Source: Alphaproteobacteria bacterium
GTDB taxonomy: Bacteria; Pseudomonadota; Alphaproteobacteria; MPNO01; UBA830
Direction of reading: 5' to 3'
Assembly (NCBI GenBank): GCA_964291215.2
Contig: OZ219790.1
Location: 1,920,001-1,984,000 of the forward strand
DNA length: 64,000 nt
The notes beneath the pieces were generated by a model. It had not been told where the DNA came from and did not search any database. It saw nothing but the letters and a program-made list of their open reading frames with translations. A program made the translations under genes and the position numbers. This document shows positions 33,188 to 64,000 of the stretch, piece after piece; position 1 is the stretch's first letter, and every line of letters begins with the position of its first letter.

Positions 33188-36100
33188 CAGACGTCCTGAC
33201 CTCGTGAGCTGACTTGATCAGTCCGCCCCCCCTTTTTCCAACACAATGGTAACTGCTCACCCCCTGGTTCCAGCTTGATGTCGGGGTAGAGCAACGAACG
33301 GGTTTTCGTGGAGATTTGACACTGCAGGCCGATTCGTTTAGTGGTGGTAATCGAGAACGACGGGGACCGCCAGTGGGCTACTTTGGATCGAAGGCGACGA
33401 GCGGGCTGTGCCAGCTGCTTTCGGGGCTCCAGCCCCCGCATGATCTGTATGTGAAAACGCATCTCGGAAGCGGCGCGCTGATGAAGCGCAAGGCCGGGTG
33501 ATGGCGACGGGCGGCGCGCGAGGAGTTCGAAGCGGCCAAGACCGCGGCGCTGCCGGCAAGGTGGCGGAAGAGGCCGTCATCCGCGTCCTCGTCATCCTGC
33601 TCGACATCATCATCGTCGTCCTTCTGGAGAAGACCACGCACGAGCCGGAACTCCGGTCTGCCGCCGTCACAGACGGACGAGAGCGTGCCGGGAGCAACGG
33701 CAAGGGCCCGAAGCCGAACCGGCAGATGGGCGACAACCTGCGCAAGATCATCGTCGAGGAGACGGTCGCGGCCTGCGACGCCTGCGGCACCGACATCGAC
33801 GGCCCCATCGATCGGGAGCGCCGCACGACATCGTGTTCGAGGTCGTCGAGCGCCGCGCCGAGATCAAGGAATGGCCGAAGTGCAAGGCCCGGTTCCCCGA
33901 CAACATCCCGTGCAGTACGGCATCGGCATCCAGGCCCTCGTTATCAACCTGCTGGTCGCCCAGATGCTGTCCCTGCGCCGTCGCGCTCGTGCAGGCGATC
34001 TCCGGCATCAAGCTCTCCGAGGCAACCTGCCTCAGCTATGCTTTCACGATGCGTCATGGGAGGAGGCCGCCGTGGCGCACCTCCTGCAACGCCCTGCCCT
34101 GCATGTCGACGAGACCGGATTTCGGATCAACAGTAAGTGGCTCCATGTCGTGGGACCCTGACGTGCAAGTTCCCGCACCGCAAGCGCGGCCGGGAGGCAA
34201 GAGATCGGCCCGTGCTACAAGGGCGTCCTGGGCCTCGTACATGGCAGTGTAGCCACCAGCTGTGCGGTAGCCACCTGCTGCGCGAACTGACCTTTGTCGT
34301 CGAGGCTACCGCGCGACTGATGAAGAGCCTGCTCCGCGAGGTCTGCCACAAGATCAACAAGAGCGCATCCAAAACCCTGAACGACGCCGGGCGCAAGCGC
34401 TACCGCACCATCAGGGCGCCAGGGAACTGCCCGACATCCCGCCGAAAGGAAAACGTGGACGCAAGTCCGACGCGCACAACCTGCACGAACGTCTCGTGAA
34501 ACACGAAAACCTGCGCTTCATAGACGACCCCGATGTCAGCTTCACCAACAATGCCGGAGAACAGAAAATCAGGATGGCAAAGCTCAAGGTGTCCGGATGC
34601 TTCCGCTCCACGCAAAAGCATGGTGCCAAGCTACCTCACCTCCATGGCCGCACTCGGCTACAATCATCACGTCGCAACCCAGATCGCCCTCGACGGAAAA
34701 GCCGCAGACATCATCAACGAGCACTACGACCAATCAGAACCCAACTAGGGGTGAGTAGATACACACAATGAACGATTTTCCCGGTTTTTGCTTGACAACG
34801 TAGCCGCGTGATGGCCCGATATACCATGATGCCTGTAATTGGATACTCCCGGCCATGAACACGCTCGCGATGCACCCTCCTGAAGCCATCGGAACCTCGT
34901 GCTTCTCCCTTGCGGATGTCGACGGACAGACCGTCTACTTCTCGAACATGGAGCCCTGCCACGACGAGGGCGGCGATGCTGCTGCGGATCGCCAGGCACC
35001 GCATTCCTCAAAGAGACCTGCAGGCGGCGTGAGCCGCGCGACCGTGCAGCGGGCGGTGAAGAAGCTCCGGGACAGGGGCGAAGCGAGCTTCCACGAGGCG
35101 CGCAGGAGCCGCGGTATCAGCGTGTTCACCGGCGAGACGGCGGACGCGGCGAATCGTCTCCTGGCCGAGGGCATGAGCGCCGCGGCACTGGCCCGGGAAC
35201 CGGGGATTGCGAGATCGACGGTGTACTACAACCTCGGCAACGGGTTTGTCGGCGCCGGAGGGCGGCCGCAGCCGGAGGCGGCGAAAGTCGACGAGGCCAC
35301 GAGATGTCCGGACGATCTTCTCGGCCGCGGCGAGCGGGACCGTCGCGACAGGGTCGCGCCGATGGGGCGCGCGCGACAGCGCCGGGCGCGTCGCGGCCTC
35401 GACGGGGGCCATGACCGAAGCGCCGCCGCGCTTCGACGAGCCGCTCTCGGCGCTGTTGAAGGAGGGTCTCCCGGAGCACGCGAACAGGTTCCTGTCGCTG
35501 CCGAAAGGGTATTACGGGCTGACGGGCGTGCTTCTCATGCTCGCGTTCCTGTTCATGGGCCGGAACCCCGAGGCGCTCGGAGAACGGGGCGCGGTCGTGG
35601 GGCTCGACCGCTGCCCGGAGGCCAGGACGCTGCGGCACAAGATCAGGACGCTTGCGAGCGACCCGCAGCGGGTCCGGGACTGGCAGGACGCGCTGGCCTG
35701 GATCGCGGACGCGCGACGCTGTCGGTGGACGAGCACGTGAAGGTGTATTCGGGCCGCAAGGGCCGCCTGCAGAAGCACTTCGTGTCGCAGCTCTGCCTGC
35801 CGGCCTTGATCAGCTGCTGGGTCAACGCGCTCGGCGGCAGGCCGCTCCTGTGCCTGCACAAGGACCCGACCATGACGCACGCGCTGGAGCACGACATCCT
35901 GCCTGCGCTGGAGCGGCCTGCCGGGGCGCCGGATCTCGCCAAGGGAGAGGCGGCCGCGCTGACGCTGGTGTTCGACCGCTGGAGCCCGGCGCTGTTCGCC
36001 CGCCTCGCCCGGCGCAGGATGGCGGTGATCGCCTGGCACAAGGGGTTCGGGGGCGATCCCTGGCCGGAGGGGGAGTTCCGCACGGCCGCTCCACGGTCCA

Positions 36101-36890
36101 GGTTCCGGACCGCCGAGGTGCGGCTCGCGGAGAAACGGATCACGCTGTCCGGCGGGCCGGAGGTGCGCCAGATCCGGCGTCTTCCGGACAGCGGCCGGCA
36201 GGTGCCGCTTGTCACCACCGACATGCACACGCCCATGGAGCGGGTCGCTGGCGCGCTGTTCTGGCGCTGGTCCCGGGAGAACTTCTTCAAGTACATGCGC
36301 GAGGGGCTCGGCCTCGACGCCCGTGCACGGCCTTGTCGAGCAGGACCCCGCAGCGCGCGTCCCGGACTGGCGCCGCTGCGACCGCCGCATCCGGCAACTG
36401 CGCCAGAATCTCGGCACGCTGCGCAACCGCGTCGCCGACCTGCTCGGGGGCACCCCGTCCGACACCGCTGTCACGCTGAAGGACGAGATCGTGACGCTCG
36501 ACGCCGAGCACGAGGCGCTCAAGGTCCGGCGTTCAGAAACCCCGAAGCATGTCACGGTGGCCGAGCTCGACGAGAGACTCGACGCCCTGCCCTCCAGCGA
36601 GAAGCTTCTGCTCGACATCGTTCGCATGATCGCCTACCGCGCCGAGACCCGGATGATGTCCGCCGTCGCCGCGGCGCAGGGCGCAAAGCAGCGTCCACGA
36701 CGCCCTCTCGCCGAACTGTTCCAGTCGGACGCCGACATCGCCGGACTGCTCGACGAACTCAACCGGACGCGCACGATCTTCCCCGGAACCGGCCTCCGCA
36801 TGATCTACGAACTGCCAGACAACGCACGCAAACCCGGCCCGGAAGCATCACTCCGATTGGAAGAAATCGAAGCCGCGGTCAGGACCTCTG
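33188..36890 (+). mobile_element. degraded unclassified IS-like element hosting an IS66 copy
   Basis: IRs cagacgtcctgacctc / cagaggtcctgaccgc, flanking AAATT duplication; frameshifted transposase-like text (VDEHVKVYSG, WSRENFFKYM) at 34855-36890. Confidence 0.7.
33249..34762 (+). mobile_element. degraded IS66-family element, copy 1
   Basis: IRs gtaactgctcacccc / gtatctactcacccc, 8-bp duplication ACACAATG; fragments HVDETG, CGSHLLREL, FTNNAGEQ. Confidence 0.88.
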
Positions 36891-37024
36891 AAATTATGTC
36901 TCCGGCCTTTCCGGTCAATCGGTGTCGGGCGCTACCCTGGAAGGCTCCTCCGGTGCATGGTGCGGTCCGGCCAATTTTTGTCCGGAACGGGCTTTACTGT
37001 CCCGGTTGCATACGCCATATTCGT

Positions 37025-37308
37025 CCTGTCGGCTTGCCGACTATGGCGATAAACGGCTTGTGCAATAAGCGCCGTGGACCCGGGGGCAGTACCCGGCGCC
37101 TCCACCAACGCATCCTGCGGGAACTGCCGCGGATGTTCCGACGGGGGCGAAACAGGATCGACACGCGTCTAAAGACTTGCTTTTCGCCCGGTATGGTACC
37201 GCCGTTAGCGGGCCGCCTTTACAAATGCCAATGACAACGAATTGGCCCTCGCTGCCTAGATCTAGGAAAGCGCGGTCCCGGGGGCACCGGGCAACAGAAG
37301 CCCCCGAC
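37025..37308 (+). ncRNA. ssrA: two-piece (permuted) tmRNA
   Basis: T-arm + CGCCTCCACCA end at 37107, hairpin spacer, GGGGGCGAAACAGGATCGAC 5' end at 37143 (G3:U pair), tag ANDNELALAA* at 37227-37259; next to sspB; outer ends approximate. Confidence 0.95.
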
Positions 37309-37465
37309 TTCCACGACCCGACAGGCCTCTGGAAGCGGACAGTCCGATGTTGCCCGGGCTGCAAACCTGGCCGAAGCGCTTGGCTAGGTCCGGTTCCGGA
37401 GCTATTCTGCGATCCGGCTGCGAGGTGCAGCGCACGGACAGCAGAAATGCGGGACTTGCCGGCTC

Positions 37466-37945
37466 ATGGCTGACGACCTGATCGACTACGCGCAACTGGC
37501 TGCACGGGCAATGCGCGGAATCATGCGCGAAGCGCTCGCACGCGTCGAACAGGAAGGCCTGCCCGGCGAGCACCATTTCTACATCTCGTTCCGGACCAAG
37601 CATCCGGATGTCCGTATCGCGGATTTCCTGAGGCACAAATACCCCGAAGAGATGACCATCGTCCTTCAACACAAGTTCTGGGGCCTTGCCGCGCGCGAGG
37701 ACACCTTCGACGTCACGCTGAGCTTTTCCGGCCGGCACGAGGTTCTCCATATCCCCTATGAGGCAATAACCGTCTTCGCCGACCCGTCCGTCAATTTCAG
37801 CCTTCAGTTCGACGGCGCAGGCGACGGGACCGTCGCGGAGGGTCCGGCAGATTCCGATGAAGACGCGCCGCCGGCTCAGGCCGACCGCGGCGAAGGCACC
37901 AGCGAGGTCATCGCCCTTGATGCCTTTCGCAAGAACAGGACCTGA
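37466..37945 (+). CDS. sspB: ClpXP adaptor SspB (alphaproteobacterial type)
   Basis: LPGEHHFYISF, YPEEMTIVLQH, FADPSVNF, C-terminal VIALDAFRK. Confidence 0.93.
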   Translation: MADDLIDYAQLAARAMRGIMREALARVEQEGLPGEHHFYISFRTKHPDVRIADFLRHKYPEEMTIVLQHKFWGLAAREDTFDVTLSFSGRHEVLHIPYEAITVFADPSVNFSLQFDGAGDGTVAEGPADSDEDAPPAQADRGEGTSEVIALDAFRKNRT

Positions 37946-38015
37946 GCCGGTGAGTTTGCGTGCCGCGCCCGCCGCCCAACCCCGCACCAACCAGCAACCA
38001 GGGAGTTGATCCGAC

Positions 38016-39626
38016 ATGGCCGACGGCTCCTACGATGATATCCTTCCTCTCGGTCCCGATGAGACCGAGTACCGCAAACTCACGTCGGACTTCGTGTCGG
38101 TCGCCGATTTCGAAGGGGAGGAGATCCTCAAGGTCGAACCCGAGGGTCTCGAACAGCTTTCCGCGGAGGCGTTCTCCGACATCGCCCACTTCCTGAGGCC
38201 GGGGCATCTGCAGCAGTTGCGCGATATTCTCGATGATCCGGAGGCGTCGGACAATGACCGCTTCGTGGCTCTCGATCTCCTGAAGAACGCCAACATCGCC
38301 GCCGGCGGTATCCTGCCCATGTGCCAGGATACCGGGACCGCGATCATCGTGGGCAAGAAGGGACACAATGTTCGCACGGACGGCAACGACGAATCGGCGC
38401 TGTCGGACGGGGTTCTCAGAACCTATCGGGAACGAAATCTGCGTTATTCCCACGTCTCGCCGCTTGCGACGTTCAGCGAAACCAACACCGGTACCAACCT
38501 GCCCGCGCAGATCGAGATCTATTCCAGCCGCGGCGACGAGTACAAGTTCCTCTTCATTGCCAAGGGCGGCGGTTCGGCCAACAAGTCGTTTCTCTACCAG
38601 CTGACACCAGCGGTGCTGAACGAAAAGGCGATGCTCTCGTTCATTGACGAGAAGATCCGCTCGATCGGAACCGCGGCCTGTCCGCCATACCATCTGGCAA
38701 TCGTCATCGGCGGTACGTCGGCCGAATTCACCATGAAGACGGTCAAGCTCGCCACCACCCGCTATCTCGACTCGCTGCCGACCGAGGGCGGCGATCGAGG
38801 GACCGGCTACCGCGACCTCGGGATGGAGGAGAGGGTTCTCGAGCTCTCCCGCAAGACCGGCATCGGCGCCCAGTTCGGAGGCAAGTATTTCTGCCACGAC
38901 GTCCGCGTGATCCGCCTGCCGCGGCACGGCGCGAGCGTTCCCATAGGCCTCGGCGTCTCCTGTGCGGCCGACCGCCAGGCGCTTGCAAGGATCACGAGGG
39001 ACGGCGTGTTCCTCGAACAGCTCGAGATGAACCCCGCCAGGTTCCTGCCCGAAATCGAACCCGCCGATCTCGCCGGCGAGGTGGTGGAGATCGACCTCGC
39101 CCGCCCGATGGAAGATCTCAGGCGTACGCTCGGGCGCTGCGGCATAAGCACGCGCCTCTCGCTCACCGGGCCGATGGTCGTGGCGCGCGACGCCGCTCAC
39201 GCCAAAATCAAGCAACGGCTCGACGCCGGAGAGCCGATGCCCGACCATTTCCGGAACCATGCGATCTATTACGCGGGCCCAGCCAAGACACCGAAGGGAT
39301 ATGCCTCGGGCTCGTTCGGCCCGACCACTGCAGGCCGGATGGATTCCTATGTCGAGGAATTCCAGGCCCGCGGCGGTAGCCACGTGATGCTGGCCAAGGG
39401 CAACCGGTCGCGGCAGGTGACGGAGTCGTGCAAAAAGCATGGCGGCTTCTACCTTGGCTCGATAGGGGGTCCAGCTGCCCGGCTGGCGCAGGATTGCATC
39501 AGAAAGGTCGACTGCATCGAGTATCCCGAACTCGGGATGGAGGCGATCTGGCGCATCGAGGTCGAGGATTTTCCCGCGTTCGTCGTGATCGACGACAAGG
39601 GAAACGATTTTTTCGCCGGATTTTGA
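38016..39626 (+). CDS. fumA: class I fumarate hydratase
   Basis: [32 protein letters not shown]. Confidence 0.93.
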
Positions 39627-39956: not shown

Positions 39957-40330
39957 ATGAAATTCTGCGTGTTCGGTGTCGGCGGATTCGTCGGCGGCAT
40001 GGTCGCCCGTTCCGTTGCCGAGGTGTCGTTGGTAGCGCACGGACCCCACCTTGCCGCGCGTCGTGCCGACGGCCTCGAAGTCATCGCCGATGGCGAGCAG
40101 TTCACGGTCAAGGTCCCGGCAACGGACAGGCCTCAGGAACTGGTCTGCAGGATGTCGTGTTCATGGCTGTCAAGGCGCATGGCCTCGCCGCGGCGGCGCA
40201 GGCTGCCAGACCGCTGATGGGTCCGAAAACGGTGGTCGTCTCAGCACAGAACGGAATACCGTTCTGGTACTTCCACGCCCACGGCGGCCCGTTCGACAAC
40301 CGCGCATTGCAGACGGTGGATCCACGACGA
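39957..40330 (+). pseudogene. 2-dehydropantoate 2-reductase (PanE/ApbA family) remnant
   Basis: Damaged Rossmann N-terminus, frameshift near 40145, then MAVKAH and AQNGIPFWYF; truncated. Confidence 0.75.
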
Positions 40331-40545
40331 TCCCACGCTGCTAATCCAGCGGCGACCGGCGAGATTTTTCGGTCTGCGTCGCGCTGCAATCGTGCCGCCA
40401 AGGCTCAATGAGGCCTTCTCGGCGCGAAAAATTGCGATCAAGGAGCGATCCGTGATGACGCGAGCCCCAACACATTCGGATTTCGCGTCTCGGAATCAGC
40501 ATGGAATCACCGTGATCAACACCTAGGGGAATCGCTTTTGAAGAT

Positions 40546-42148
40546 GTAACTGCTCACCCCCTGGTTCCGGCTTGATGTCGGGGTAGAGCAACGAACGGGT
40601 TTTCGTGGAGATTTGACACTGCAGGCCGATTCGCTTAGTGGTGGTCATCGAGAACGACGGGGACCGCCAGTGGGCTACTTTGGATCGAAGGCGACGAGCG
40701 GGCTGTGCCAGCTGCTTCCGGGGCTCCAGCCTCCGCATGATCTGTATGTGGAAACGCATTTCGGAGGCGGCGTGCTGATGAAGCGCAAGGCGGAGTACCG
40801 GAAGATGCCGCCGGGCGAGCGCCAGGCGATGCTCGCAACGATCATGACCGTCGAGGCCGGGTGATGGCGACGGTCAACGCGGCGTCGCTACGCGAGGAGT
40901 TCGAAGCGGCCAAGATCGCGGCGCTGCGTGCGGCCGGCAAGGTGGCGGAAGAGGCCGTCATCCGCGTCTTCGTCATCCTGCTCGACATCCTCATCGTCGT
41001 CCTTCTGGAGAAGACCACGCACGAGCCGGAACTCCGGTCTGCCGCCGTCACAGACGGACAAGAGCGTGCCGGGAGCAAGGGCCCGAAGCCGAACCGGCAG
41101 ATGGGCGACAACCTGCGCAAGACCATCGTCGAGGAAACGGTCGCCGCCTGCGACGCCTGCGGCGCCGACATCGACGGCCCCGTCGATCGGGAGCGCCGCA
41201 CGACATCGTGTTCGAGGTCGTCGAGCGCCGCGCCGAGATCAAGGAATGCCCGAAGTGCAAGGCCCGGACCAAGGGCCGGTTCCCCGACAACATCCCGTGC
41301 AGTACGGCATCGGCATTCAGGCCCTCGTCATCAACCTGCTGGTCGCCCAGATGCTGTCCCTGCGCCGTCGCGTTCGTGCAGGCGATCTCCGGCATCAAGC
41401 TCTCCGAGGCCTCGGCTATGCTTTCACGATGCGTCATGGGAGGAGGCCGCCGTGGCGCACCTCCTGCAACGCCCGATATCGACGAGACCGGATTTCGGAT
41501 CAATAGCAAGTGGCTCCATGTCGTGGGACCCTGACGTGCAAGTTCCCGCACCGCAAGCGCGGGCAAGAGATCGGCCCGTGCTACAAGGGCGTCCTGGGCC
41601 TCGTACATGGGCCAGTGTAGCCACCAGCTGTGCGGCAGCCACCTGCTGCGCGAACTGACCTTTGTCGTCGAGGCTACCGCGCGACTTATAAAGAGCCTGC
41701 TCCGCGAGGTCTGCCACAAGGTCAACAAGAGCGCATCCAAAACCCTGAACGAGGCCGGGCCGTGCGCAAGCGCTACCGCACCATCAGGGCGCCAAGGAAC
41801 TGCCCGACATCCCGCCGCCGACGAAAGGAAAACGTGGACGCAAGTCCGACGCGCACAACCTGCACGAACGTCTCGTGAAACACGAAAACCTGCGCTTCAC
41901 AGACGACCCCAACGTCAGCTTCACCAACAATGCCGGAGAACAGAAAATCAGGATGGCAAAGGTCAAGGTGTCCGGATGCTTCCGCTCCACGCAAAAGCAT
42001 GGTGCCGGGGCTCAAGCTACCTCACCTCCATGGCCGCACTCGGCTACAGCCCACTCGTCGCCACCCAGATCGCCCTCGACGGAAAAGCCGCAGACATCAT
42101 CAACGAGCACTATGGCCAATCAGAACCCAACAAGGGGTGAGTAGATAC
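40546..42148 (+). mobile_element. degraded IS66-family element, copy 2
   Basis: Same IRs and body as copy 1; flanks TTGAAGAT / CTGAAGAT. Confidence 0.88.
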
Positions 42149-42208: not shown

Positions 42209-43449
42209 GGTACTGTAACTTGATGTCTGGAAATTTGTCTGAGGTTTGCGCTTTGAGGCGTTTCACTGGGGGGCTAGCCCCCCAGTGAAACGCGGCGCCA
42301 TCGTGCTATCCCATGGAGTTGCAAAACCTTCATGGAGGAAGCGAATGGACCTGCGACACACTACGACGATCGGGACTGTTTTGGAACATCTGATCGCAAA
42401 CGGAGCAACGGATCTGGGGCGGATCTTTGGTCAGCTCTTCGAGCTTGCGATGCAAATCGAGCGCGAGCAGCACTTGAAAGCGGGCCACTACGAACGGACA
42501 CCGGAACGACAGGGCTATGCCAACGGCTATAAGCCCAAACGGATCGACACCCCCACTGTTGCCAAACGGTCACGGGGACGACCCCCCAGTCGCTTGAACG
42601 CGGCCAGCGATCTTCTCGCGCCGTAGCCGAGATGTACATCAAGGGTGTTTCCACACGGCAGGATGTAATGCGCGAGTTCGGGAGCCTGTCCTCTTCTCAG
42701 GTCAGCCGGGCCACCAAGTTGCTCGATGAAGAACTCGCCGCGCAACCGGCCCCTGATGGAATACCTGATCCTGGATGCGCGCTACGAAAAAGCCCGCCAT
42801 GACGGCGTTGTGCGCGATGTTGCAGTACTCTCGGCCATTGGAATAGGGGCTGCAGGCACGTTCTGGAGCTCTCTGTGGCGCTCTCCGAGGCCGAGGTCCA
42901 TTGGAGAGCCTTCCTGGAAAGCTTGCTAGCCCTGCATGGTACGACCTTCATCGTCTCGGATGCCGGGCTGAAAGCGGCACGACGCGCGGTGCTGGGCGCG
43001 GCGACGTGGCAGCGCTGCCAGTTCCACCTGGCGCAAAACGCCGTGCACCGAACAACGACATCAGGAAACGTATTGGAAAACAGCTCAGAGCCATGCGTCC
43101 TCACTCCAAACCGCCGAGGCTGAACTGGGCGCCCTCGTGGCCAGCTATCGCGACAAGCATCCAAGCTTCGCAGACTGGCTGGAAAAGAATGCGGGGCTCG
43201 CTGTCTTCACCTTGCCCGATGCTCACCGCAAACGTATGCGAACCTCGAACGGCATCGGGCGACCGATCCAGCAAGAGCTCAAGCGGCGCACCTCCAAAGT
43301 CAGGGTCTTTCCGAACCTCGCCTCGTTGGAGCGCCTCTCAACCGCAGTCCTCATCGACGAAAAATGGGAAACCGAAACCAAGGCATACATCAAATGGGAA
43401 CAGCTCGATCAGCTTCACGACAATTTCCAGACATCAGGTTGCGTAATCC
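42209..43449 (+). mobile_element. degraded IS256-family element, copy 1
   Basis: IRs sharing tgatgtctggaaatt; fragments GYANGYK, YLILDARYEK, WQRCQFH, MRTSN; no target duplication. Confidence 0.88.
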
Positions 43450-51839: not shown

Positions 51840-51920
51840 TGATAGTAAGATATATATCAAGATACGTCAAGAAAATATGATTTGACATCAACTTTCATCT
51901 TGACACTCCGTTGTCAGATT
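51840..51920. promoter_or_regulatory. AT-rich divergent promoter region with palindromes
   Basis: GTCAA-N11-TTGAC (51866-51886), TGACA-N6-TGTCA (51901-51916), two TTGACA hexamers. Confidence 0.45.
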
Positions 51921-51963
51921 GCCATTATTGATTTGGCACGACAACCATGAGGGCCCACATTTG

Positions 51964-52767
51964 ATGACCAAAAGATTCTCGGAACGGCACGGCTATCGAC
52001 CAACCGCTCCAAAGATCACAGTTCGTGAGGATGCTCCCCCGGAACTGCGTGGCGTTATTCCCTTGATTGCTGAAGAGGCAGGCATGAAGCCATCCGTCAT
52101 GCGGAAGGTGATTTGTAAAGTCTTGCTGGTGCCTCCCGACCTGAGCAATTGGTCCGATTACCCAAACATCTTCGAGGAGGTCACTCTGCTTATTCAAGAG
52201 GCCTCTTGGTACAAGATTTACGACATAGCCGAGGCTCTTTATGCGAAACTCGCCGTAAAAGGCCCGCCGCTGGAACCTTCTGAGCCGGCAAACAAGTTCG
52301 TGCGGCTCCTGAACGAATTCTTCGTAGAAAACGGCATCGGTTGGGAACTCCGCAACGGCCAGATCATTCGCAGAGGCTCGGATACTTTCGCCAAGAGTAC
52401 GCGTGAAGTTCCTGACCGTTTGGAAAAGAAAGGCTTTCAACGCACTGCAAAAGAAATGCGCGAGGCCCTGATAGACATTTCTCGTCGTCCGGAGCCGGAC
52501 ATCACCGGCGCCATTCAACATGCGATGGCGGCCCTTGAGGCAACCGCGCGCGAGATAAGCAGCCAACCCAATTTGACCTTGGGCAAGCTCGTGTCCAAAC
52601 TTGATTTGCCAACGCCTCTCGATCAAGCCGTGCACAAACTATGGGGCTATGCTTCCGAGTACGCTCGCCACATCCACGAGGGGAAGTCCATTGATGACTC
52701 CGAAGCCGAATTGATTGTTGCAATCGCCGGTTCGCTTTGCGCGTTTTTGGTTCAGCGCGACTCCTGA
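51964..52767 (+). CDS. AbiJ-NTD4-like domain protein
   Basis: RFSERHGY..ITVREDAP N-terminus, WYKIYD, C-terminal LWGYASEYARH. Confidence 0.7.
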   Translation: MTKRFSERHGYRPTAPKITVREDAPPELRGVIPLIAEEAGMKPSVMRKVICKVLLVPPDLSNWSDYPNIFEEVTLLIQEASWYKIYDIAEALYAKLAVKGPPLEPSEPANKFVRLLNEFFVENGIGWELRNGQIIRRGSDTFAKSTREVPDRLEKKGFQRTAKEMREALIDISRRPEPDITGAIQHAMAALEATAREISSQPNLTLGKLVSKLDLPTPLDQAVHKLWGYASEYARHIHEGKSIDDSEAELIVAIAGSLCAFLVQRDS

Positions 52768-52948: not shown

Positions 52949-54316
52949 TTATATCCAGTCCAAGTCAGGGCGTTTTCGAGGCGCACCCGAGACACATGCC
53001 GATTTCGTACCATCTGATTGCTCCATATCCTTGGTTCTGACCCAAAGAGGAACTCGCTCTCTTTCTGGCGCAGCTGGCTTTCCGGGACTTTGGAGCTCGG
53101 GCGTGGCGCTCAATACATCGTCCGTTTCGTCTGACAACGATGGTAACTCGGCTTCGTATCCCATCGCTCGCGCTATGACGGCAGCGGCCTGCGCTGCGGC
53201 GGCGCGTAATGCGCCATCGTCGAGATGGGCGTAGATCGCCGTGGTCTCGCGCTGGCGGTGTCCGAGAAGTCGGCCGACGGTGGTGAGCCCCACACCGCTC
53301 ATTACGCCCTGCGAGGCCCAAGTGTGGCGGCAGTCGTGGATGCGAAGACCCGGAAGCCCCGCTTCCTCGCGGATGCCGCACCAGAAGGTGTAAAGCCGGT
53401 CCGACGTGAGGTCTTCGGGGAATACGCGGGCGCAGCCATTGATGCGCGGCAGCACGGCGAGCAGGCCAGCCGCCTCCGGCCCGAGCCAGATGGTGCGCTG
53501 CCCGGTTTTCGAGTCTTCGATGCGCGCACTTGCACCATCCTTGCCAAGCTCGCCGCCCTCATCCCATTTGAGGTTGAGGATTTCGGAGAGGCGCGCCCCG
53601 GTGAGCGTCAGCAGCCGGACTGCTGTGACTGGCCAAAGGTGTTCCTGACGGTGGCGCTCCAGCACCGTGCCGAGACGCTCCAACTCTTCGCGGTTGAGGT
53701 AACGCGCGACGGGCTTGCGAGGATTCTTCACGATATTGGCGCAGGCATCGGGGACATGCTCACCAATATCGCCCCACTGGCGGGCCGTCCTGAGCATGGC
53801 GCGCAGGATCTCGAACGCGCGGTTGGCTGCACCGGGCTTGTCCGCACTCGCGGAGTCGAACCACGCCGAGACGCGGGCATGGTCGATGGCGTCGAGCCGG
53901 AGCCTGCCGAAGTGCGGTGCCAGGCGGTTTCTCATGTAGACATCGAAGGTCTCCAGTGACGACGGCTTCCAGCGATGCCGGCGACGCTCGCGGTAATGCT
54001 TGGCGAAGTCCCGGAACAGCGGCGCCTTCTTCTTGCGCATCGGCGTCACCTCCTCGCCGCCCCACAGGCGGGCGAGCACAGCCGCGCCTTCCCGGCGAGC
54101 CGTATCAAGGGGCAGTTCGGGAAAACGGCCGAGGGTGATCTTGCGCATGCGTCCCCGGACGCGGGTCTGGACAATCCAGGAGCGCACTCCCGAGGGCTGC
54201 ACACGGACCCCGAAATGGGCGAGCAGACTGTCCCAGAGGGTGTATTCCCGTTCCGCTGGCTTCGCGGCAGCGACGGCCTTCACGGTGAGCCGCACCCGGT
54301 GCTTTCCGCGGTTCAT
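52949..54316 (-). CDS. tyrosine recombinase/integrase with arm-binding domain
   Basis: TGARLSE, SKTG, HDCRH, LGH, IYAH; N-terminal FGVRVQPSG. Confidence 0.93.
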   Translation of the reverse strand: MNRGKHRVRLTVKAVAAAKPAEREYTLWDSLLAHFGVRVQPSGVRSWIVQTRVRGRMRKITLGRFPELPLDTARREGAAVLARLWGGEEVTPMRKKKAPLFRDFAKHYRERRRHRWKPSSLETFDVYMRNRLAPHFGRLRLDAIDHARVSAWFDSASADKPGAANRAFEILRAMLRTARQWGDIGEHVPDACANIVKNPRKPVARYLNREELERLGTVLERHRQEHLWPVTAVRLLTLTGARLSEILNLKWDEGGELGKDGASARIEDSKTGQRTIWLGPEAAGLLAVLPRINGCARVFPEDLTSDRLYTFWCGIREEAGLPGLRIHDCRHTWASQGVMSGVGLTTVGRLLGHRQRETTAIYAHLDDGALRAAAAQAAAVIARAMGYEAELPSLSDETDDVLSATPELQSPGKPAAPERERVPLWVRTKDMEQSDGTKSACVSGAPRKRPDLDWI

Positions 54317-55455
54317 CGTGCGCTCTCCTTCCCGTTGCCGGTCATGGCGCTATGGACGATGCCGGAGATGCGCCCGGCCGCCTCGCGGACATGCTCATCA
54401 GCGAGATGGGCGTAGCGTTCGGTGGAGGCGGTGTCGGCGTGGCCAAGCAGGCGGCCGACGGTGTAGAGGTCGAGGCCGCTCATCACGGCATAGGAGGCGA
54501 ACGTGTGCCGGCAGTCGTGAATGCGCACATCGTCCAGCCCGGCGAGATTGCGCAGTTTCCGCCAGCGCAGCCCGAGGTCGGCCATCGGGCCGTCGCTATT
54601 CCGGTTCGGGAAGACGAAGCATCCTTCACGCGGCAGGCTGCTCAGAACGGCCCGTGCAGGCGGTGGAAGCTGGATCGCCTTCGGCCCAGTCTTGGAATCG
54701 GGCAACACCGCGCGAGTGTCGCGTATCCAGTCCCATTGCAGGCCGACGATCTCGGACGACCGCGCGCCGGTGAAGAGCAGCAGGCGAATCGCGGCGGCAG
54801 CCTGCCGGTCCTCCGCATGGTCGAGCACGAAGCCGAGGCGCTTCAACTCGTCCAGCGACAGGAACCGCTCGCGCGGCGTTGTCTTGTAGCGCCGCATGTT
54901 GCGGCAGGGGTTCGATCCCTGCGGGCGAATATCCCAGAGCTCCGCCTGCCGCATCATCACCGACAGCACCGGCAGGATCCGGTTGGCGTTGCTGGGGGTG
55001 CCGCTGAGGGAATCGAACCAGCGCTGCACATCGGCGCGCTCGATCTTCGCGACGCGCATCGTGCCGAAGAAGGGCACGATGTAGCGGTCGATCAGGTGGG
55101 CGTTGCCCGCCCTCGTGGAGGGCTTCCAGCGCCTTCCCTGACGGCGCATGAAGTCGGCCGCGAAATCGGCGAACAGCAGGCCGCTCTCGCGCACGGTCTT
55201 GGCTTCGGCGATGGCGGCAATGGCCTTCTCTCTTGCCTCGGCGGCGGTCATATCGTCGGCGGTGCCGAGGACGGTCTTCGATGCGCCGACGGGTCGCAGG
55301 GCCCGGACGAAGAAGGTCTTCGTCCCGTTCCTGGCGACGGTGAAGCCAAAGGCGGGCAGGTCCCTGTCGATGACGGTCAGGCCGTATCGTCCGGGTTTCT
55401 TCTCCTTGAAGGTGCGGCGGACCGTCCGATCGTTGATGGTGGCGTGGATGCGCAT
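54313..55455 (-). CDS. tyrosine recombinase/integrase (second, tandem paralog)
   Basis: TGARSSE, SKTG, HDCRH, LGH, RYAH; ATGA overlap with partner. Confidence 0.93.
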   Translation of the reverse strand: MRIHATINDRTVRRTFKEKKPGRYGLTVIDRDLPAFGFTVARNGTKTFFVRALRPVGASKTVLGTADDMTAAEAREKAIAAIAEAKTVRESGLLFADFAADFMRRQGRRWKPSTRAGNAHLIDRYIVPFFGTMRVAKIERADVQRWFDSLSGTPSNANRILPVLSVMMRQAELWDIRPQGSNPCRNMRRYKTTPRERFLSLDELKRLGFVLDHAEDRQAAAAIRLLLFTGARSSEIVGLQWDWIRDTRAVLPDSKTGPKAIQLPPPARAVLSSLPREGCFVFPNRNSDGPMADLGLRWRKLRNLAGLDDVRIHDCRHTFASYAVMSGLDLYTVGRLLGHADTASTERYAHLADEHVREAAGRISGIVHSAMTGNGKESAR

Positions 55456-55649
55456 GGGCGTGTCTCCGTTGTCTGTTTCCTCGGGTGCCGTCCGTCCCAA
55501 GGGAACAAAACGGCGGTTTTGAACGGACAGCACGCCCCGCACACGGGATCGCGGCCAGTGAACGGATCTGGCCTAACCATCTGTCAGATAAAGGAAAACT
55601 CCCGACCGATGCAGGCCGGATTGTCCTCGCTCTTTGCGCCCCAGGCGCG

Positions 55650-57507: not shown

Positions 57508-59465
57508 CTCGCATGTCACGGAAATTTTAGCTGACAACGGTGTTTCGGCGTGGCATAAGTGTCCCATGTCACAGATCAGCCGCACATTGCGGGACGAGGC
57601 AGCAGTTGCGCGGATCGCGTCGCTGCTGTCCTGTGAGCAGTTCGACAGCCGGTCGGCTCTGGGTCGTCTGCGAGGAGTTTGCCTTTGTCGACGCGCGCGG
57701 CCGTCTGCAGCTTGCCGGCTGCATGAAGGCGCTGAGGGCGCCCGGAGATCGTCCTGCCGGTGCCGAAGTCACCGACAATCGACCGCCGGCCTCGCCTGTT
57801 GGTATCGCTGCAGAGGTTCCGGCGCGCGCATTCGGGATCTCGAGATCATCGTGGTCGGGGATCGTATTGACCGAGCGGTCACGCTGATTGCGCGTGAACA
57901 CCCGCGACGACCTTCGCCGGCTGCCAATATCTCGTGGGCTCGGCGCACGGGTGGCGGGGTTTGCCGCCGCCGCGCGGCGCGGGACCGCTGGATGGAACGA
58001 CGGGCAGCGCCGGAACCACCTGCAGCGGATCGTCTGTCTGAGCCGTTTCTTGATCAGGTGCTCTGCCCGCCCAGCCATGTGCGCATCCTGCGCCGCGTGA
58101 CTTCGAGGACCGTTTCGACCATGGCTCAGTTTTGCCGATGAAGGTTACCCTGCCTGCGCGCGGCCAACTTCCTGTGCAGGACCGAAGGCCGGCAGGACTG
58201 GGAGACGGTGAAGACGGTCTTCGTGGCCGAACTGGAGCGCGCAGGAAGCTGGGGAGGTCGATCATGCGCCCTCGCCGGGCGAAGGTCTGAACGACTGGGC
58301 GCAGAACGAGTTTGGAGGGGGGTGACAAGCGACTTTCTGCGCGCCTGGAGCGCCAGCCTTCTGGCGGCCGGTCAGAAGATCAATGCGTCTCCCAGCGCCG
58401 ACAACACCGCGATCAATGCGTTTTACCGGATGGTCGCCCTCGGAGATCACGCCGGCGAACATTCTTGCGCCGCACCGTGAGCGCAGCATCCGGCGCATCC
58501 GTGGCCAGAAGACGGTTCTTGCGGCACGGACCTGAACTTCTCCCGGCCTGCAGGTGAGAACCAGACCGGGGCCTGCACGCGACCCTGGCGGTGACTGACC
58601 TGCCACTCGGGGTGCTGGGTCCGGTGAAGCCCCGGTCGCAGGAGACACGCCGCAGCTCGAGGGGTTCAAGGCGCTGCCACCCCGGCGGCAAGACGCGCGT
58701 CATCTCCGTCGGGAAGCCGACATCTTCGAGCTGTTCGACACGCGCTTGCCCCGCGTCGATCTGCGCGCCAAGCATGACAGGGTGCTGAAGGAGGGAAGGC
58801 TGTTCGCCGTCATGGCCGGCGGCCTGATTGAGATCGAGGGACTGACGGAGCAAGCCAGCCGGAAGAAGGCCCGCGCGACAGAAGCGCCTGGCGAGTTGCG
58901 GTCCGTCACCCGTGACGGGCACCGCCCCCAGCGCGAAGCCGGTGTCCCTGCACGGGGTCAGGGAGCGCCCGAGGGTGAGGATCCCGGTGCCTGCTGACCA
59001 CCGTGCGGGTTGGCGAAGGAGGCGGCCGACATCGTCGGCTTCTACCTTCAGCGCTGGCGAATCGAGGATTACGTGCTCAAATCCGGATGCAGGGTGGAAC
59101 ACCTGCTGTTCCGCACCGCCTGCAGCGGGCGATCAACGCCGTCATCGCATGGCGCATCATGGTCATGACCCTGCTCGGCCGCCAGGTGCGAGCCGCAGCT
59201 GATGTTCACCGACAGCGAACTCGCCTTCCTGCGCGACTACGCACACAAGTACGCCCTGAAGGAACCGGAGCGTCTCGCCGATGCGGTGCACCTGGTCGCC
59301 CATCTCGGCGGCTACCGCAGCACGCCCGGGTCACCAGATCATGTGGCCAGACACACCAGCGCCGCACTGGGTCACCAAATCGGCCGGGAAATCGGGTTCC
59401 GGGATGGACAAAGACACGCGTGAACACGTAAACCATTGTCAACCAGATTTGTCATGACACGGCAG
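57508..59465 (+). mobile_element. degraded IS4-family element with N-terminal DUF4338-like region
   Basis: GGCTAGCC duplicated at flanks; imperfect IRs ctcgcatgtca / ctgccgtgtca; fragments AARDRW, NHLQRIVCLSRFLI, RWRIEDY, AVIAWRIMVMTLLGR, AHLGGY. Confidence 0.75.
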
Positions 59466-59599: not shown

Positions 59600-62500
59600 C
59601 ACGGCGATCCCACGCTAGTGTTATGTCAGCAATGATATGTCGTACATTTGGTGCTAGACTGTCCGTCCATTCGGGATGGAGGTCGGAGTATGAAACGCTA
59701 CGTGGTGACCCTGGACGAGGCGGAACGGAAAGAACTTTCGGAGATCACGACCAAGGGCTCGCACCTGTCGCAAAAGGTAATCAACGCCCTGATCCTGCTT
59801 AACTGCGACGAGGGCGCGTTCAATGAATGCCAGATGACCGGGAAGGTCATTGCTGAGATTCTGCGCATCAGCATGCGCAAAGTAGACCGAGTGAAGAAGC
59901 GTTTCGTTGAAGAGGGGCTAGAGGCGGCATTGGGTGGCCGGCAAGGACGCCGTCCTACCTATATGCGAAAAGCCGACGGCGTCTTCGAGGCGCGCTTGGT
60001 GGCCCTGAGTTGTGGTGAACCGCCCGAGGGTTACGCGCAATGGTCGTTGCGGCTGCTGGCCGACCGCGTTGTTGAGCTTGGTTACATTGATACCGTGTCA
60101 CACGAGACGGTGCGGCGTGTTCTAAAAAAAACTGCATCAAGCCATGGCAGCGGGTTGGGTGGGTAATTCCTCCTCAAGGGAATGCCGACTTCGCCGCGGC
60201 GAAGGTGCTCGATGTCTATCGCCGCCCCTATGATGCCGCCTTCCCCGTGGTCTGCATGGACGAAACGCCCCGACCGGCGAGACACGGCAACCGATCGCCA
60301 TGGCGCCGGGACGGCCAGCGCGTAACGACTACGAGTATCGACGTTGCGGCACCTGCAACGTCTTCACGGAACCCCTGGCCGGCAAGCGCATGACCAAGGT
60401 AACCGAGCGCAAGATCGACTGGGCGCAGTTCCTGGCCGACATCGCCGAGCGCTACCAGGATGCTACCACCATCACCCTGGTGATGGACAATCTCAACACT
60501 CCCCGGCGCCTTCTATGAGGCCTACCCGCCGGACGAGGCCAAGGCCTTGTGGGACCGCTTCGAGTTCGTCTACACCCCCAAGCACGGCAGTTGGCTGAAC
60601 GTGGTCGAACTCAACGTCATGATCCGCCAGTGCCTGAACCGCCGCATCGACTGCATCGAGGTGCTACGCCGGGAAGTTGCCGCCTGGCAGGCGACCGCAT
60701 CCAGGCCAAGGTGGATTGGCAGTTCACCACCGACGATGCCCGCGTGAAACTCAAACGTCTTTATTCGACATTTGACGAATGACAAGACACTAGGTTTGTT
60801 GGAAGGGTCGGTTTTGCTTGTTCAGGATGATTCGCATTTTCGCTGGCTTTTTGTGAAGCGACGTAGTATCCGTTGTCGTGGGGGCAGCGGATTTTTTTGA
60901 GACGACTCCGGAGGGTTTTGAGCTCCGGGATGTGGTTGTGCGCCTTGCGCGGCTTGATGTCGCTGGAACCGTGTTGTTGACCGTATCTTGGTTTCAAGCA
61001 GTTTGCCGGTCGAGGTCTGCGCTACGTGTTCACTTGGCGCGGGCGGTGGATTGGTGCTGCGGGCTGGCAGACGGGCGCCCTCAGCTGCGCACCCGTTGGA
61101 TTGGCTGGCGCCGCGAGGAACAGTTCAGGCGGTTGCCGGGAACAACACGAGGTTTGTTGTTCCTGGTGGTCGTTTCCGGGCCTTGCCTCGTTTGCGTTGT
61201 CGCGGATGGTGCGGCGGCGACTGGGAGGCTGCGCCATCCGTTGCTTGTTGCGGAGTCGTTTGTCTTGCCGACGAAGTTCAGCGGCACCATGTACAAGGCG
61301 GCGAACTGGGAGTGCGTTGGCAGGGGCCATGCGCGCGCCAGCGGGCGCTATACCGACCGGGGAGGCGAAGGATCTTTACGTGTTTCCGCTGCGTCGCGAT
61401 GTCGGCTGCGGGATCGTTCGCCGCTTCCTGTGGCGTGGGAGTTGCGGGCGCCGCTGGTCGGCGCAGGAGTTGCGCTCGATTTATCAGCGGCGCTTTCCGA
61501 CTTCCGGCGCGCGCAGGGGCACCGCATCGCCTCGGTGCTGTGCGTGATTTTGCTGGCTTGCGAACCGGCACGGTTGCGGCGGCGCACTACGCGATGACGC
61601 AGAAGGAGCTGGAGCAGCATGGAAGAACAGGGACACCGGCAAGTATGAGCCGGTCTCCAAATCGACCGTGCACCGGGTGCTGCAGAACACCGACCCGGGA
61701 TGGATCGAGGATGCTCTGCGGCGCTGGGCGCAGCCGCGCCTGGAGGTCGGCAACGCGGTCGACGGCAAGCGCATCCGCGGCCGCACCGGCGAGGATCATT
61801 ACGAGACAGTCTCGCTGGCCGGTATTCGATCCTCAACTATCACGACGGGGAGATCGCTGCTGTCCACGCCGCGACGGCACCGGTTGCCGGCCGTCTGCTC
61901 ACCCTCGACGCGCTCCACACCACCCGCGAGGCTGATCATCGAGACCCATCTCGCGGACTGATGGTCAAGGGCAACGCACCTTCGAGAGAGCATCAACTGG
62001 AAGACCGCCAGCGCTACAACGAAAAGCCCGCGCATGGCCGCCAGCGCACCATCTTCACCCCGCTGGCGAAGATGATCAACTAGTCAAGCAGATCTTCCGC
62101 GTCACCCGGCGCGTCGAATTCAAGAAATCCAGAAAACGGACAACCGAATACGCCATGACCTCGGCCGAACGCGCCTCGCCGCAACAGCTGCTCGCATGGA
62201 ATCGTGTACACTGGGTAGTCGAGAGCCATCATCATGTCCGCGATGCCACCTTCCGCGAAGACGACTCCATGCTCCGAACGCGCCCGCAAACAACGCGATC
62301 ACCCTCGCAATCGCCGTCATCATCCGCAACAAACGCAAGCTGCCCAAACCCTTCAACAGCTTCCCACTATGCCGACAAGCGCAAGCAGGTCCTGCACGCA
62401 ATCACAAGACCAGGCTGACCGCGCCTCTCTCCCCGACAGAAACTGCAAGCTTTCGAGCCCGGCAACCAAGACCTCTCGCTCGCCCCGGATACGCCGACCA

Positions 62501-62620
62501 ATCGCGCCCCGCACCGTAACAGCGCGTCAGCAAATCTCAAAATCGCAGCCTCAAACGCGTCGACCCGCGCCACGATCAGGACTCCGATCACATCACATCA
62601 ACAAGCATGGGATCACCTTG
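59600..62620 (+). mobile_element. degraded ISAs1-family element with DUF4338-like region
   Basis: 10-bp duplication GCAAACGGAG; IRs cacggcgatcccacgc / caaggtgatcccatgc; fragments AVDGKRIRG, LTLDALHT, VKGN, HWVVESHHHVRDATFRED. Confidence 0.8.
59618..60790 (+). mobile_element. IS630-family element (orfA intact 59690-60166, orfB frameshifted)
   Basis: CTAG at both flanks, IRs gtgttatgtca / gtgtcttgtca, A8 run at orfA end, VCMDE, MDNLNT, YTPKHGSWLN. Confidence 0.9.
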
Positions 62621-63010
62621 GCAAACGGAGCAACGGATCTGGGGCGGATCTTTGGTCAGCTCTTCGAGCTTGCGATGCAAATCGAGCGCGAGCAGCACTT
62701 GAAAGCGGGCCACCGGACACCGGAACGACAGGGCTATGCCAACGGCTACAAACGGATCGACACCCCACTGTTACCGTTCAGGTGCCAAACGGTCACGGGG
62801 ACGACCCGTTCTATCCCCAGTCGCTTGAACGCGGCCAGCGATCTTCTCGCGCCGTGGCCGTAGCCGAGATGTACATCAAGGATGTTTCCACGCGGCAAGA
62901 TGTAATGCGCGAGTTCGGGAGCCTGTCCTCTTCTCAGGTCAGCCGGGCTACCAGGTTGCTTGATGAAGAACTCGCCGCGCAACCGGCCTCTGATGAAATA
63001 CCTGATCCTA

Positions 63011-64000
63011 GTAGTCCACCGGCATTGTATTGATGGTTTTTGGTGGGTAGTATTCCTGTGTCGGCATCCGTTGGAATCTGGACAGTGTCGATATCCACAC
63101 GGGCAAGATGCCGAACAGGCAGCCGCAGCCCCATGTACAGGTCTGGACAACGGGAGCGGCGCAATGACAGGAGCAGCGTATATGGCCAACTCTCGGGGCA
63201 GGAAGCTCTACCGCGTGACCCTTTCGGCGCAGGAGCGCCGGGATCTGAAGGCGATTGTCGACGGCACCGGGGCTGCCTGGCGTCGGCGCCGGGCACAGGT
63301 CCTGATGCTGAGGGGGCGCTTGTCGATGCCGACATTGCGCAAGGGCTGGGCATCGGCACGGCGACGGTTGAGCGCTTGCGCAAGCGCTGCGTTCTGGAGG
63401 GGCTGGACGCCGCCCTCAGCCGCAAGGAGCAGGTGAACCGTCGGCCGAAACGGGGGCGATGGAGGCGAAGCTGGTCGCCCTGTTCGTCCCCGCCCGAGGG
63501 CTGTGGACGCTGAAGCTGCTCGACGGCCGTCTGGTGGAGATCGTCGAGCGCATTTCGGAAGAGACGGTCAGGAAGACGCTAAAAAAAAGAGATCAAGCCG
63601 TGGCTGAAGCAGTACTGGTGCATTCCACCGCACCGGAGCGCACAGTTCGTAGCGGCGGATGTGCTTGACATTTATCAGCGGGACTTTGCCGGGGACGAGG
63701 TGCTGGAGACCAGCCGGCAGCAGGAAACCCGCATCCCCCCGGTCAGCCGGAGGTGGTCGACTATGAATATGAGCGCAACGGCACGGCCAACCTCTTCATG
63801 GCCTTTGCGCCCAACGAGAACTGGCGCACGGTGAAAGTCACCGCCGCCGCGGGACTGGGCGCACTTCATCCGGGAGCTTGCCGACGACCATTTCCCCGAC
63901 AGAAAGATCGTGCTGGACAATCTGAACACGCACAGTCACTGTATGAAGCCTTCGAGCCCGAGGAGGCGGGTACGAAAGCGGTTCGAGTTTCGCTATACGC
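63011..64000 (+). mobile_element. second degraded IS630-family element (runs off right edge)
   Basis: Inserted at CTAG; VERLRKRCVLEGL, ISEETVRKTLKK A-run, DYEYERNGTANLFM, LDNLNTH. Confidence 0.8.

Follow-up and report, generated by a model that had tools for sequence, protein, structure and literature searches.

A narrow class of 5- to 7-bp deletions in the dead mobile elements of an alphaproteobacterium

The locus and its dead mobile elements

The DNA analysed here is a stretch of 64,000 nucleotides from an alphaproteobacterium (C1:1920001-1984000 of genome G000), hereafter called the window, and the subject is the set of broken mobile elements that it holds: copies of a dead derivative of an IS66-family insertion sequence (IS), of a dead IS256-family element, of a group II intron and of two repeat families, F5 and F7. 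These elements are eroded by short deletions, among which a lineage-specific class of 5-7 bp stands out, with identical sites hit in many copies. The window was mapped by copy depth against the whole genome and by Pfam and Rfam searches.

The genome comprises 6.15 Mb in two contigs, with 64% G+C and zero N. The closest matches to its fumarase are from an uncultured marine alphaproteobacterial metagenome-assembled genome (76%) and Nitrospirillum (72%), and there is no close named relative. A 9.5-kb stretch had 56-66% of its sampled words in three runs of one organism and small shares in sponge and marine metagenomes, and sponge metagenome X1 contains a relative of about 95% identity (e.g. an 8558-base contig with 376 differences); the bacterium is apparently sponge-associated. 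Comparisons were made with G001, a relative that is 92% identical and assembled in 220 contigs, and with the same-genus genomes G002-G004. Evidence from reads is in the form of Logan contigs from three runs (X9, X10 and X11), not of raw reads; the sequencing chemistry is off record, and X9 is possibly the source sample of the assembly.

The IS66 derivative is 1.5-1.6 kb long and occupies about 180 genomic places (336 chained hits, 123 full-length short forms), and about 40 further copies hold an intron remnant of 1.45-1.7 kb at one fixed position. Its own open reading frame (ORF) pieces have no Pfam match. It was assigned to IS66 by tblastn with the intact transposase of G004 (Pfam DDE_Tnp_IS66, 6e-31) and the closer one of G001 (488 aa), which match the family reconstruction in pieces, at 33-65% identity and in several frames; this similarity to a DDE-type IS66 transposase was found for both elements, 33249-34762 and 40546-42148. 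Copy 1 is flanked by the 8-bp target duplication ACACAATG, and copy 2 by TGAAGAT with one mismatched base (the preceding T on one side, C on the other), a length of 8 bp being what we take to be typical of IS66. The terminal inverted repeats read GTAACTGCTCACCCC... with the inverted partner at the other end. At copy 1 the joints of read contigs near 33216 and 34785 disagree with a precise empty site. That the two copies have different target duplications and differ by substitutions, as first noticed from their sequence, was borne out by alignment. No intact transposase gene was present in 120 copies or in the family consensus, and an autonomous partner was not found, the best other transposase in the genome being 37% identical.

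A second IS66 element, which is young and intact (2357 bp with a 463-aa ORF), occurs at C1:476941-479300 and in about 11 further positions. Its transposase has 72% identity with the G004 enzyme, its copies are 99.5-100% identical with 0-4 gap positions, and all that it has in common with the dead family is the first eight or so terminal bases plus two short 5′ segments of 73-81% identity.

The dead IS256 at 42209-43448 was recognised by two ORF pieces that match Transposase_mut, each at 1.2e-11; the genome as a whole has 117 such matches. Two intact genes for 422-aa IS256-type transposases (C1:885113-886225 and C2:3220224-3221333) were considered as master of this family of about 100 copies and rejected, their DNA being unrelated (55% in a forced alignment, no BLASTN hit). 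An initial statement that almost every IS is broken was thus too strong in view of these genes and the young IS66. The intron was identified on the minus strand at 44826-44992 by Rfam group-II-D1D4-6 (61.5 bits against a cut-off of 49), by an RVT_1 piece (1.6e-9) in a sister copy and by ltrA similarity; its ORF is broken in the copies examined. The dead IS256 and F5 were not found in G001-G004, an absence that is limited by the 220-contig state of G001. Pfam searches with the ORFs of F5, F7 and a further family, F6, gave only a weak HTH_29 match. A stretch of 137 bp is 100% identical between 42271-42407 and 59465-59601 in families that are otherwise about 3% apart, and may represent a recent copy or a recent exchange tract.

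A narrow size class of deletions in old repeat families

Aligned to each other over 1322 columns, IS66-derivative copies 1 and 2 differed by 37 mismatches and by 12 gap openings that comprise 77 gap positions, and the IS256 fragment near the right edge of the window differed from the first IS256 copy by gaps of 6, 6, about 10, 8 and 6 bp. The deletions cited in a preliminary description of the window all exist: the 66-bp piece between AGGC repeats, TCAAC and GTCGCT in the IS66 pair, and in IS256 the TACGAA gap and a gap of about 10 bp in the ACCGTTCAGG region. They had been called private to single copies, which they are not. None of the 16 indel differences between the IS66 pair is private, each state occurring in 8-110 of 120 copies; the 66-bp piece is lacking from 88 of these, TCAAC from 79 and GTCGCT from 110. 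Frameshifts shared between separately inserted copies had likewise been pointed out, and they are the rule, the string that contains the shared frameshift occurring 124 times in the genome.

The dense erosion described for the dead elements holds for every window copy in which it was counted, with 13-51 deleted sites each. Counted over the clean 5-7-bp sites that are polymorphic in the respective family, IS66 copy 1 is deleted at 32 of 48 and copy 2 at 28 of 48, IS256 at 16 of 27, the intron at 51 of 61, F7 at 13 of 25 and F5 at 15 of 16. At least five old mobile-element families have hence been hit (the IS66 derivative, IS256, the group II intron, F5 and F7), and gaps of these sizes were also seen in low-copy relics of another IS66 lineage.

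The IS66-derivative alignment holds 120 of the 123 full-length short copies (length filter 1350-1750), leaving intron-bearing and partial copies aside. Relative to the majority these copies have 82 distinct deletions, 81 "insertions" and 687 substitutions. Fifty-two of the 60 indels present in at least five copies measure 5-7 bp. Private deletions are broad in size, 9 of 38 being of 5-7 bp and 10 of 1 bp; such a contrast to the near-uniform shared deletions fits a filter that acts on spreading. Within families, 44-75% of distinct indels are of 5-7 bp (Table 1).

Table 1. Deletions of 5-7 bp in repeat families and single-copy DNA (substitutions counted against the family consensus)
Sequence	Copies	5-7 bp among distinct indels	Deleted 5-7-bp sites per kb	Ratio to substitutions	Pairwise divergence
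IS66 derivative	120		26	1.4	3.0%
Group II intron	49	70/99	28	1.3	3.6%
F7	54	59/128	18	0.7	4.3%
IS256	51	31/70	16	0.9	2.7%
F5	14	21/28	10	2.0	0.8%
Integrase unit	4	12/15 (8 of these in-frame 6-bp)	3.3	0.07	8.5%
190-bp repeat	106		1.3	0.02	9.6%
Single-copy non-ORF DNA			0.43		

A 20- to 60-fold excess of the 5-7-bp class is seen in long, still-similar families and not in the short, diverged one, and the deletion-to-substitution ratio in the element families is about 60 times that of single-copy non-coding DNA. This ratio falls with divergence, from 2.0 at 0.8% through 0.7-1.4 at 2.7-4.3% to 0.07 at 8.5% and 0.02 at 9.6%. Each F5 copy has about 15 deleted 5-7-bp sites despite a divergence of only 0.8%. 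The process, earlier suggested to be possibly repeat-directed, does not look simply so: the load is 10-28 sites per kb in mobile-element interiors against 0.43 in single-copy non-ORF DNA, but the 190-bp repeat, with its 106 copies, is almost spared and the young IS66, with 11, has a load of 0.

The short alleles are deletions

Whether the short or the long allele is ancestral was addressed by means of a hidden Markov model of codon phase, with fumarase, hsdM and hsdR as its training set. When all long alleles of IS256 were combined in one reconstruction, a single codon phase extended over 1140 nt; the majority sequence, the all-short reconstruction and the real copies lose the coding signal. 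The all-long reconstruction had the best likelihood per base in five of five families, and that of IS66 has one frame with 65% identity to residues 365-483 of the G001 transposase. Since the all-long reconstructions read in a single phase, the short alleles are deletions and the long state is ancestral. Two 6-bp events could not be polarised through orthologues of window 30167-32122, as the matches of the relatives were split and contained stops.

The same class was found in single-copy DNA, at roughly one fiftieth of the density. For this comparison 296 kb of G001 (17 stretches on 7 contigs) were used, and 36 of 95 high-scoring segment pairs were kept (at least 1000 columns, at least 85% identity, no overlap), giving 209,336 aligned columns with 6.8% mismatches. 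Gaps of 1, 2, 3, 4, 5, 6 and 7 bp missing from this genome numbered 52, 13, 6, 2, 9, 25 and 8, respectively, and those missing from G001 numbered 40, 8, 13, 3, 2, 0 and 0. Sequences of 5-7 bp are thus missing 42 times from this genome and twice from G001, and in this lineage the spectrum peaks at 6 bp and dips at 3-4 bp. The 5-7-bp deletion class is specific to this lineage and not to its 92% identical sister. A deletion-biased process, as proposed at the outset, is borne out by these 42 against two events together with the ancestral long alleles in all five families. The left half of the window, taken to be clean, holds nine of the 42 events as gaps of 5-6 bp relative to G001.

Could this be no more than pseudogene decay under the usual deletional bias of bacteria? 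Deletions do exceed insertions. Private substitutions of the dead IS66 copies are dominated by GC-to-AT changes (C>T 107 and G>A 92, together 199 of 354, with T>C 29 and A>G 27), as is usual for mutation in bacteria and is seen here at 64% G+C. The panE remnant also looks ordinary; it had been counted among the densely eroded sequences and has only a 9-bp and a 1-bp deletion in about 380 coding bases before it is cut off by a repeat. The size spectrum, on the other hand, makes ordinary decay barely credible. In the part of the published account considered here (PMC6054270), bacterial pseudogene indels obey a power law in which multiples of three are over-represented; the G001 lineage fits that spectrum and this lineage, with its 6-bp mode and its dip at 3-4 bp, differs from it.

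The deletions are real

A sequencing or assembly artefact, that is, systematic drop-outs of 5-7 bases or a chimeric consensus in repeats, was considered as an alternative. X9 contigs reproduced window 17557-32500 with 0 differences and 0 gaps, and X10 pieces covered six single-copy deletion sites (18795-31695) with 0 gaps, as did X9. The more divergent X11 (about 0.7%) had 6 gap letters in 15 kb. The panE remnant was reproduced with 0 gaps in X9 and X11 contigs. In repeat contigs of X9, X10 and X11, both alleles of 5-, 6- and 7-base indels were found at a depth of more than 1000. Contigs of X10 and X11 differ from window 13000-13756 by 16-17 letters and 7 gap letters, and those of X9 are identical to it; the 5-bp deletion at 13691 may be polymorphic between strains.

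The single-copy events also avoid intact frames. Twenty-three of the 42 lie outside predicted ORFs, in a fraction that makes up 25% of aligned bases, and the eight frame-breaking events in stop-to-stop ORFs fall in the first 181 nt, near the 3′ end, or in one gene with seven events. On the strength of contig agreement and this avoidance of intact frames the deletions are taken as real; they are not a polishing artefact. In favour of some other artefact it may be said that all runs are contigs of the kind described above, one of them possibly the source sample, and that stochastic consensus errors would also be expected to produce the product of site propensity and copy exposure discussed below. 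Against it, copies with identical local sequence differ in state, the young IS66 is free of such indels and 8 of the 12 integrase events are in-frame losses of 6 bp. Together with the identical events in X9 and X10 and the nearly identical ones in X11, this renders an artefact very improbable.

Distribution of deletions among copies

Deletion states are poorly ordered by the genealogy of the copies. On a tree built from substitution columns of the IS66 derivative, more than two changes have to be assumed for 70 of the 90 shared indels, and as many as 38 for one indel present in 48 copies. All four combinations occurred in 780 of 894 pairs of common sites. Linkage, measured as r2, was 0.49 between substitution pairs and 0.19 between deletions and substitutions at less than 10 bp, 0.10 and 0.07 at 10-20 bp, and about 0.02-0.04 and 0.01-0.03 beyond 20 bp, and is therefore at background within about 20 bp; IS256 behaves alike. 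In the intron background r2 is 0.12-0.15 and subfamily structure is kept. Transversions make up 22 of 80 common substitution variants; they assort freely and are poorly explained by recurrent mutation. Logan contigs phase sites no more than a few tens of bases apart, and the mosaic as such rests on one assembly.

Plain descent would attribute these patterns to non-autonomous elements that were mobilised in trans and inherited the deletions of their masters, the mixed combinations being homoplasy or alignment noise. It fits the lack of an intact gene in 120 copies or consensus, the kept ends and 8-bp duplications, the finding that substitution differences are mostly shared (about 24 per copy against 2.8 private ones), and the intron with its subfamilies and raised background linkage. 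As the sole cause it is rejected by the tree test and by nesting, which is barely above chance, the probability of the commoner deletion given the rarer one being 0.88 against 0.84 overall. It also lacks the autonomous partner and leaves the roughly 60-fold ratio of deletions to substitutions unexplained, and we regard it as improbable. Of the proposal that eroded copies were trans-mobilised or converted, exchange between copies is the part preferred here, as an inferred process, and simple inheritance from eroded masters is the part that misfits. The survival of element ends that had been remarked on amounts to a mild effect only.

Recurrent de novo deletion at fixed hot sites, by a cut-and-rejoin or a copying activity, would instead make each state the product of site propensity and copy exposure. 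The load of deletions per copy speaks for this. Its variance exceeds that expected under independence, with 41.4 observed and 6.6 expected for the IS66 derivative, 17.6 and 3.7 for IS256, and 150.9 and 9.6 for the intron. A copy that is heavily deleted in one half also tends to be so in the other (r = 0.48-0.87 between half-copy loads), and together with the weak nesting these observations fit site propensity times copy exposure. In the IS66 derivative and IS256, load is unrelated to substitutions, whether private, shared or total (rho about 0), with mixed signs elsewhere (intron -0.47, F7 +0.40), and neither strand nor contig had an effect on it except for contig in the intron (p = 0.002). 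Copies 3 and 11 of F5 have many common substitutions, yet differ at no fewer than nine deletion sites. Overlapping alternative deletions are found clustered at the same spot, and the same size class is seen in single-copy DNA, where there is nothing to transfer.

The sites themselves, however, are unmarked. No sequence motif was found within 25 bp of the deletions, beyond a weak preference for G and then C at the first two deleted bases. Deletions start with GC in 47% against 32% at random, and an ATC start, on either strand and in any equivalent placement, was seen at 10% of 176 shared sites (random positions, 5%) and in single-copy DNA at 12% of 42 events (6%); an AT anchor is present at 19% against 12%. 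Spacing of sites is Poisson-like (coefficient of variation about 1). Microhomology averages 1.37 bp against 0.81 at random, reaching at least 3 bp at 18% of 177 sites, where 7% would be the random value (p = 4e-6), with none at all at 36%. The microhomology reported in the preliminary description is consequently present, weakly, and is not the main driver. Private deletions, moreover, are not dominated by 5-7 bp, and the common transversions assort as freely as the deletions. Recurrent deletion at hot sites fits the load pattern and F5 better than exchange does; it is the main rival and a serious one, rated as rather unlikely overall.

Repair genes and enzyme candidates

Repair genes were checked, as had been recommended. 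MutS (981-aa frame), MutL, RecA, RecJ and XseA are all intact, so that loss of mutS, mutL, recA, recJ or xseA is rejected as the cause; MutL, RecJ and XseA are also intact in G001-G003. Neither Ku (PF02735) nor an ATP-dependent ligase (PF01068) had a match in this 99.3%-complete genome, and control genomes were matched; non-homologous end joining of the Ku/LigD type is excluded as far as these two proteins go. Mismatch cutting by NucS/EndoMS was rejected with PF01939 not found in the genome. For the topoisomerase-IB deletion signature (ID-TOP1), PF01028 was not found in the genome or in four relatives searched, and the signature itself, 2-5-bp deletions in short tandem repeats, is rejected because the sizes here are 5-7 bp and 36% of sites are without a repeat. 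The absence of Ku, ATP-dependent ligase, NucS and topoisomerase IB from the matches, which control genomes did yield, also counts against recurrent cutting or copying at hot sites.

Other features of the window

The remaining features are listed with the elements in Table 2. The low-copy Transposase_29/HTH_7 element sits directly upstream of the transfer-messenger RNA (tmRNA) gene, and sspB lies just downstream of it; tmRNA genes are classic integration sites. This element has eight full-length copies, fewer than three of which pass the length filter, and F6 has one, so neither was quantified. Adjoining IS66 copy 1 is a gene for a beta-lactamase-family serine hydrolase (PF00144; 31924-33186, minus strand), a family that takes in many esterases and penicillin-binding proteins; nothing at this locus points to a role in resistance. 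The defence island at 45622-52764 encodes a HepT-like RNase, type I hsdM and hsdR and a Phd/YefM antitoxin, all on the minus strand, as well as an AbiJ-like protein on the plus strand, and is flanked by the tandem integrases; no hsdS gene was found among its scanned ORFs. Many differences between read runs were seen at 45.6-46.5 kb.

Table 2. Features of the window (positions within the 64,000-nt stretch)
Feature	Position	Strand	Basis or remark
Nine single-copy 5- or 6-bp losses relative to G001	8681, 8872, 13691, 18795, 18855, 25395, 26915, 31501, 31695	.	Alignment with G001
Dead IS66-family derivative, copy 1 (family F1)	33249..34762	+	Target duplication ACACAATG; IS66 by tblastn
Low-copy element, Transposase_29/HTH_7 gene in three frames	34804..36900	+	Pfam pieces in three ORFs; copy depth about 5
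Alphaproteobacterial permuted tmRNA gene, intact	36989..37309	+	Rfam RF01849, 249 bits
sspB and class I fumarase, single-copy, open frames	37388..39626	+	Pfam; X9 contigs with 0 differences
panE (ketopantoate reductase) remnant, residues about 32-147 in two frames	39980..40322	+	Intact G001 gene as reference
190-bp repeat, 106 copies analysed, 9.6% pairwise divergence	40323..40514	.	0.2 5-7-bp deletions per copy
Dead IS66-family derivative, copy 2	40546..42148	+	Retains the 66-bp piece
Dead IS256-family copy	42209..43448	+	Transposase_mut pieces in two frames
Group II intron remnant	43508..45026	-	Rfam group-II-D1D4-6; RVT_1 piece in sister copy; ltrA similarity
Right end of third IS66-derivative copy, host of the intron	45027..45260	+	Repeat comparison
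Single-copy defence island, open frames	45622..52764	-	Pfam; copy depth 1
Two tandem tyrosine-integrase genes, intact	52952..55572	-	Pfam; 4 full unit copies compared
Family F5, 14 copies	57551..59025	+	No Pfam match on F5 ORFs
Family F6, about 3 kb, about 47 genomic places, HTH_32/HTH_29 piece; looks broken	59626..62625	+	Copy depth, Pfam; 1 full-length copy found
Second IS256-family copy, fragment	62621..63009	+	Pairwise alignment with first IS256
Family F7, 54 copies analysed, runs past window edge	63010..64000	+	Repeat family alignment

Discussion

The observation is sharper than the preliminary description stated. The deletion bias and the shared states were right, and the view that the deletions are private, driven by microhomology and simply directed at repeats was wrong. 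Exchange of sequence between copies by gene conversion is the reading preferred here. The fuller proposal, that the lineage-specific class of 5-7-bp deletions is spread between long and similar copies by short-patch exchange favouring the shorter allele, is put forward tentatively, at somewhat less than an even chance. Each deletion would arise once, at an essentially random place, as suggested by the missing motif, the Poisson-like spacing and the small microhomology. Heteroduplexes formed between copies would then transfer deletions in patches of about 10-20 bp. MutS acts on smaller loops in Escherichia coli, and one may speculate that loops of 5-7 nt escape because the intact MutS acts on such smaller loops, and that larger heterologies hinder pairing. 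If transfer were biased to loss, deletion alleles would rise in those families in which the length and similarity of the copies allow pairing. The families may have spread earlier as non-autonomous elements with a transposase supplied in trans from a source that is no longer left. Exchange of this kind accounts for the lack of a motif, for the different spectra of private and shared deletions, for the role of copy length and similarity and for linkage over so short a range.

Several observations weigh against this preferred reading. No conversion event has been observed directly, and patches of 10-20 bp are far below the usual gene-conversion tracts of bacteria, which are much longer. Free exchange should erase differences in load, and as load is over-dispersed, copy-specific exchange rates are needed. 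In F5 the substitution markers are fairly tree-like and the deletion states are not. The young 2.36-kb IS66 (11 copies, 0.3% divergence) has zero indels of 5-7 bp. Finally, the raw 6-bp peak is left unexplained by exchange, and the sister genome has MutL, RecJ and XseA too.

The fossil IS copies of Wolbachia (PMC3205602, Cerveau et al. 2011) are, in the part of that report considered, likewise a host-associated archive of degraded elements from bursts of transposition; the difference here is one narrow 5-7-bp class at recurring sites in near-free combination, with about 60 times the load per substitution. The pseudogene spectra reported by Danneels et al. 2018 (PMC6054270) likewise concern small deletions in a host-associated bacterium, and the portion of that paper used here gives microhomology at 171 of 396 deletions and states that Ku and LigD are missing from most of the genomes studied. 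Unlike the power law given there, the present spectrum peaks at 6 bp, has an excess of 5- and 7-bp losses too and is short of those of 3-4 bp, and microhomology of at least 3 bp is found at 18% of 177 sites. In keyword literature searches, which covered listings and the first lines of abstracts, no description of a 5-7-bp deletion class in bacteria was found.

Non-autonomous IS derivatives and miniature inverted-repeat transposable elements have intact ends, a dead interior and high copy number and are mobilised in trans. The IS66 derivative resembles them in its intact ends and target duplications, its dead interior and its many copies, but it is 1.5 kb long, has no autonomous partner, and its copies differ beyond a few subfamilies. 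Exchange between dead IS copies has been proposed in Wolbachia too, where Cordaux in 2009 reportedly described gene conversion that maintains non-functional copies.

Repeat-induced point mutation of fungi introduces C-to-T transitions into duplicated DNA during the sexual cycle. As in that system, inactivation of mobile and repeated DNA here runs far ahead of that of single-copy DNA, each copy being hit many times; unlike it, the lesions are short deletions, the 190-bp repeat escapes in spite of its 106 copies, and single-copy DNA suffers some hits as well, at a low rate. It is conceivable, though decidedly unlikely, that a dedicated and enzyme-run process of this type, a deletion-based counterpart in bacteria, puts mobile DNA out of action by removing 5-7-base pieces from fixed positions in every copy, perhaps in sponge symbionts generally.

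The decay of bacterial DNA is usually modelled as point mutations with a smooth, deletion-biased indel spectrum. In this genome one narrow class does most of the damage to transposons and to the intron, and is about as frequent as point mutation in F5; in as many as 120 copies the sites behave as though each were hit, or exchanged, on its own. Should exchange be the true explanation, this would clearly exemplify, in a bacterium, the loss of sequence from a repeat family through biased gene conversion, and conversion tract length would be measurable in an uncultured symbiont. Should a cutting or copying activity be responsible, it would represent a new mutational process and possibly a new form of transposon control. 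In either case the roughly 600 dead copies in this genome constitute a ready natural experiment.

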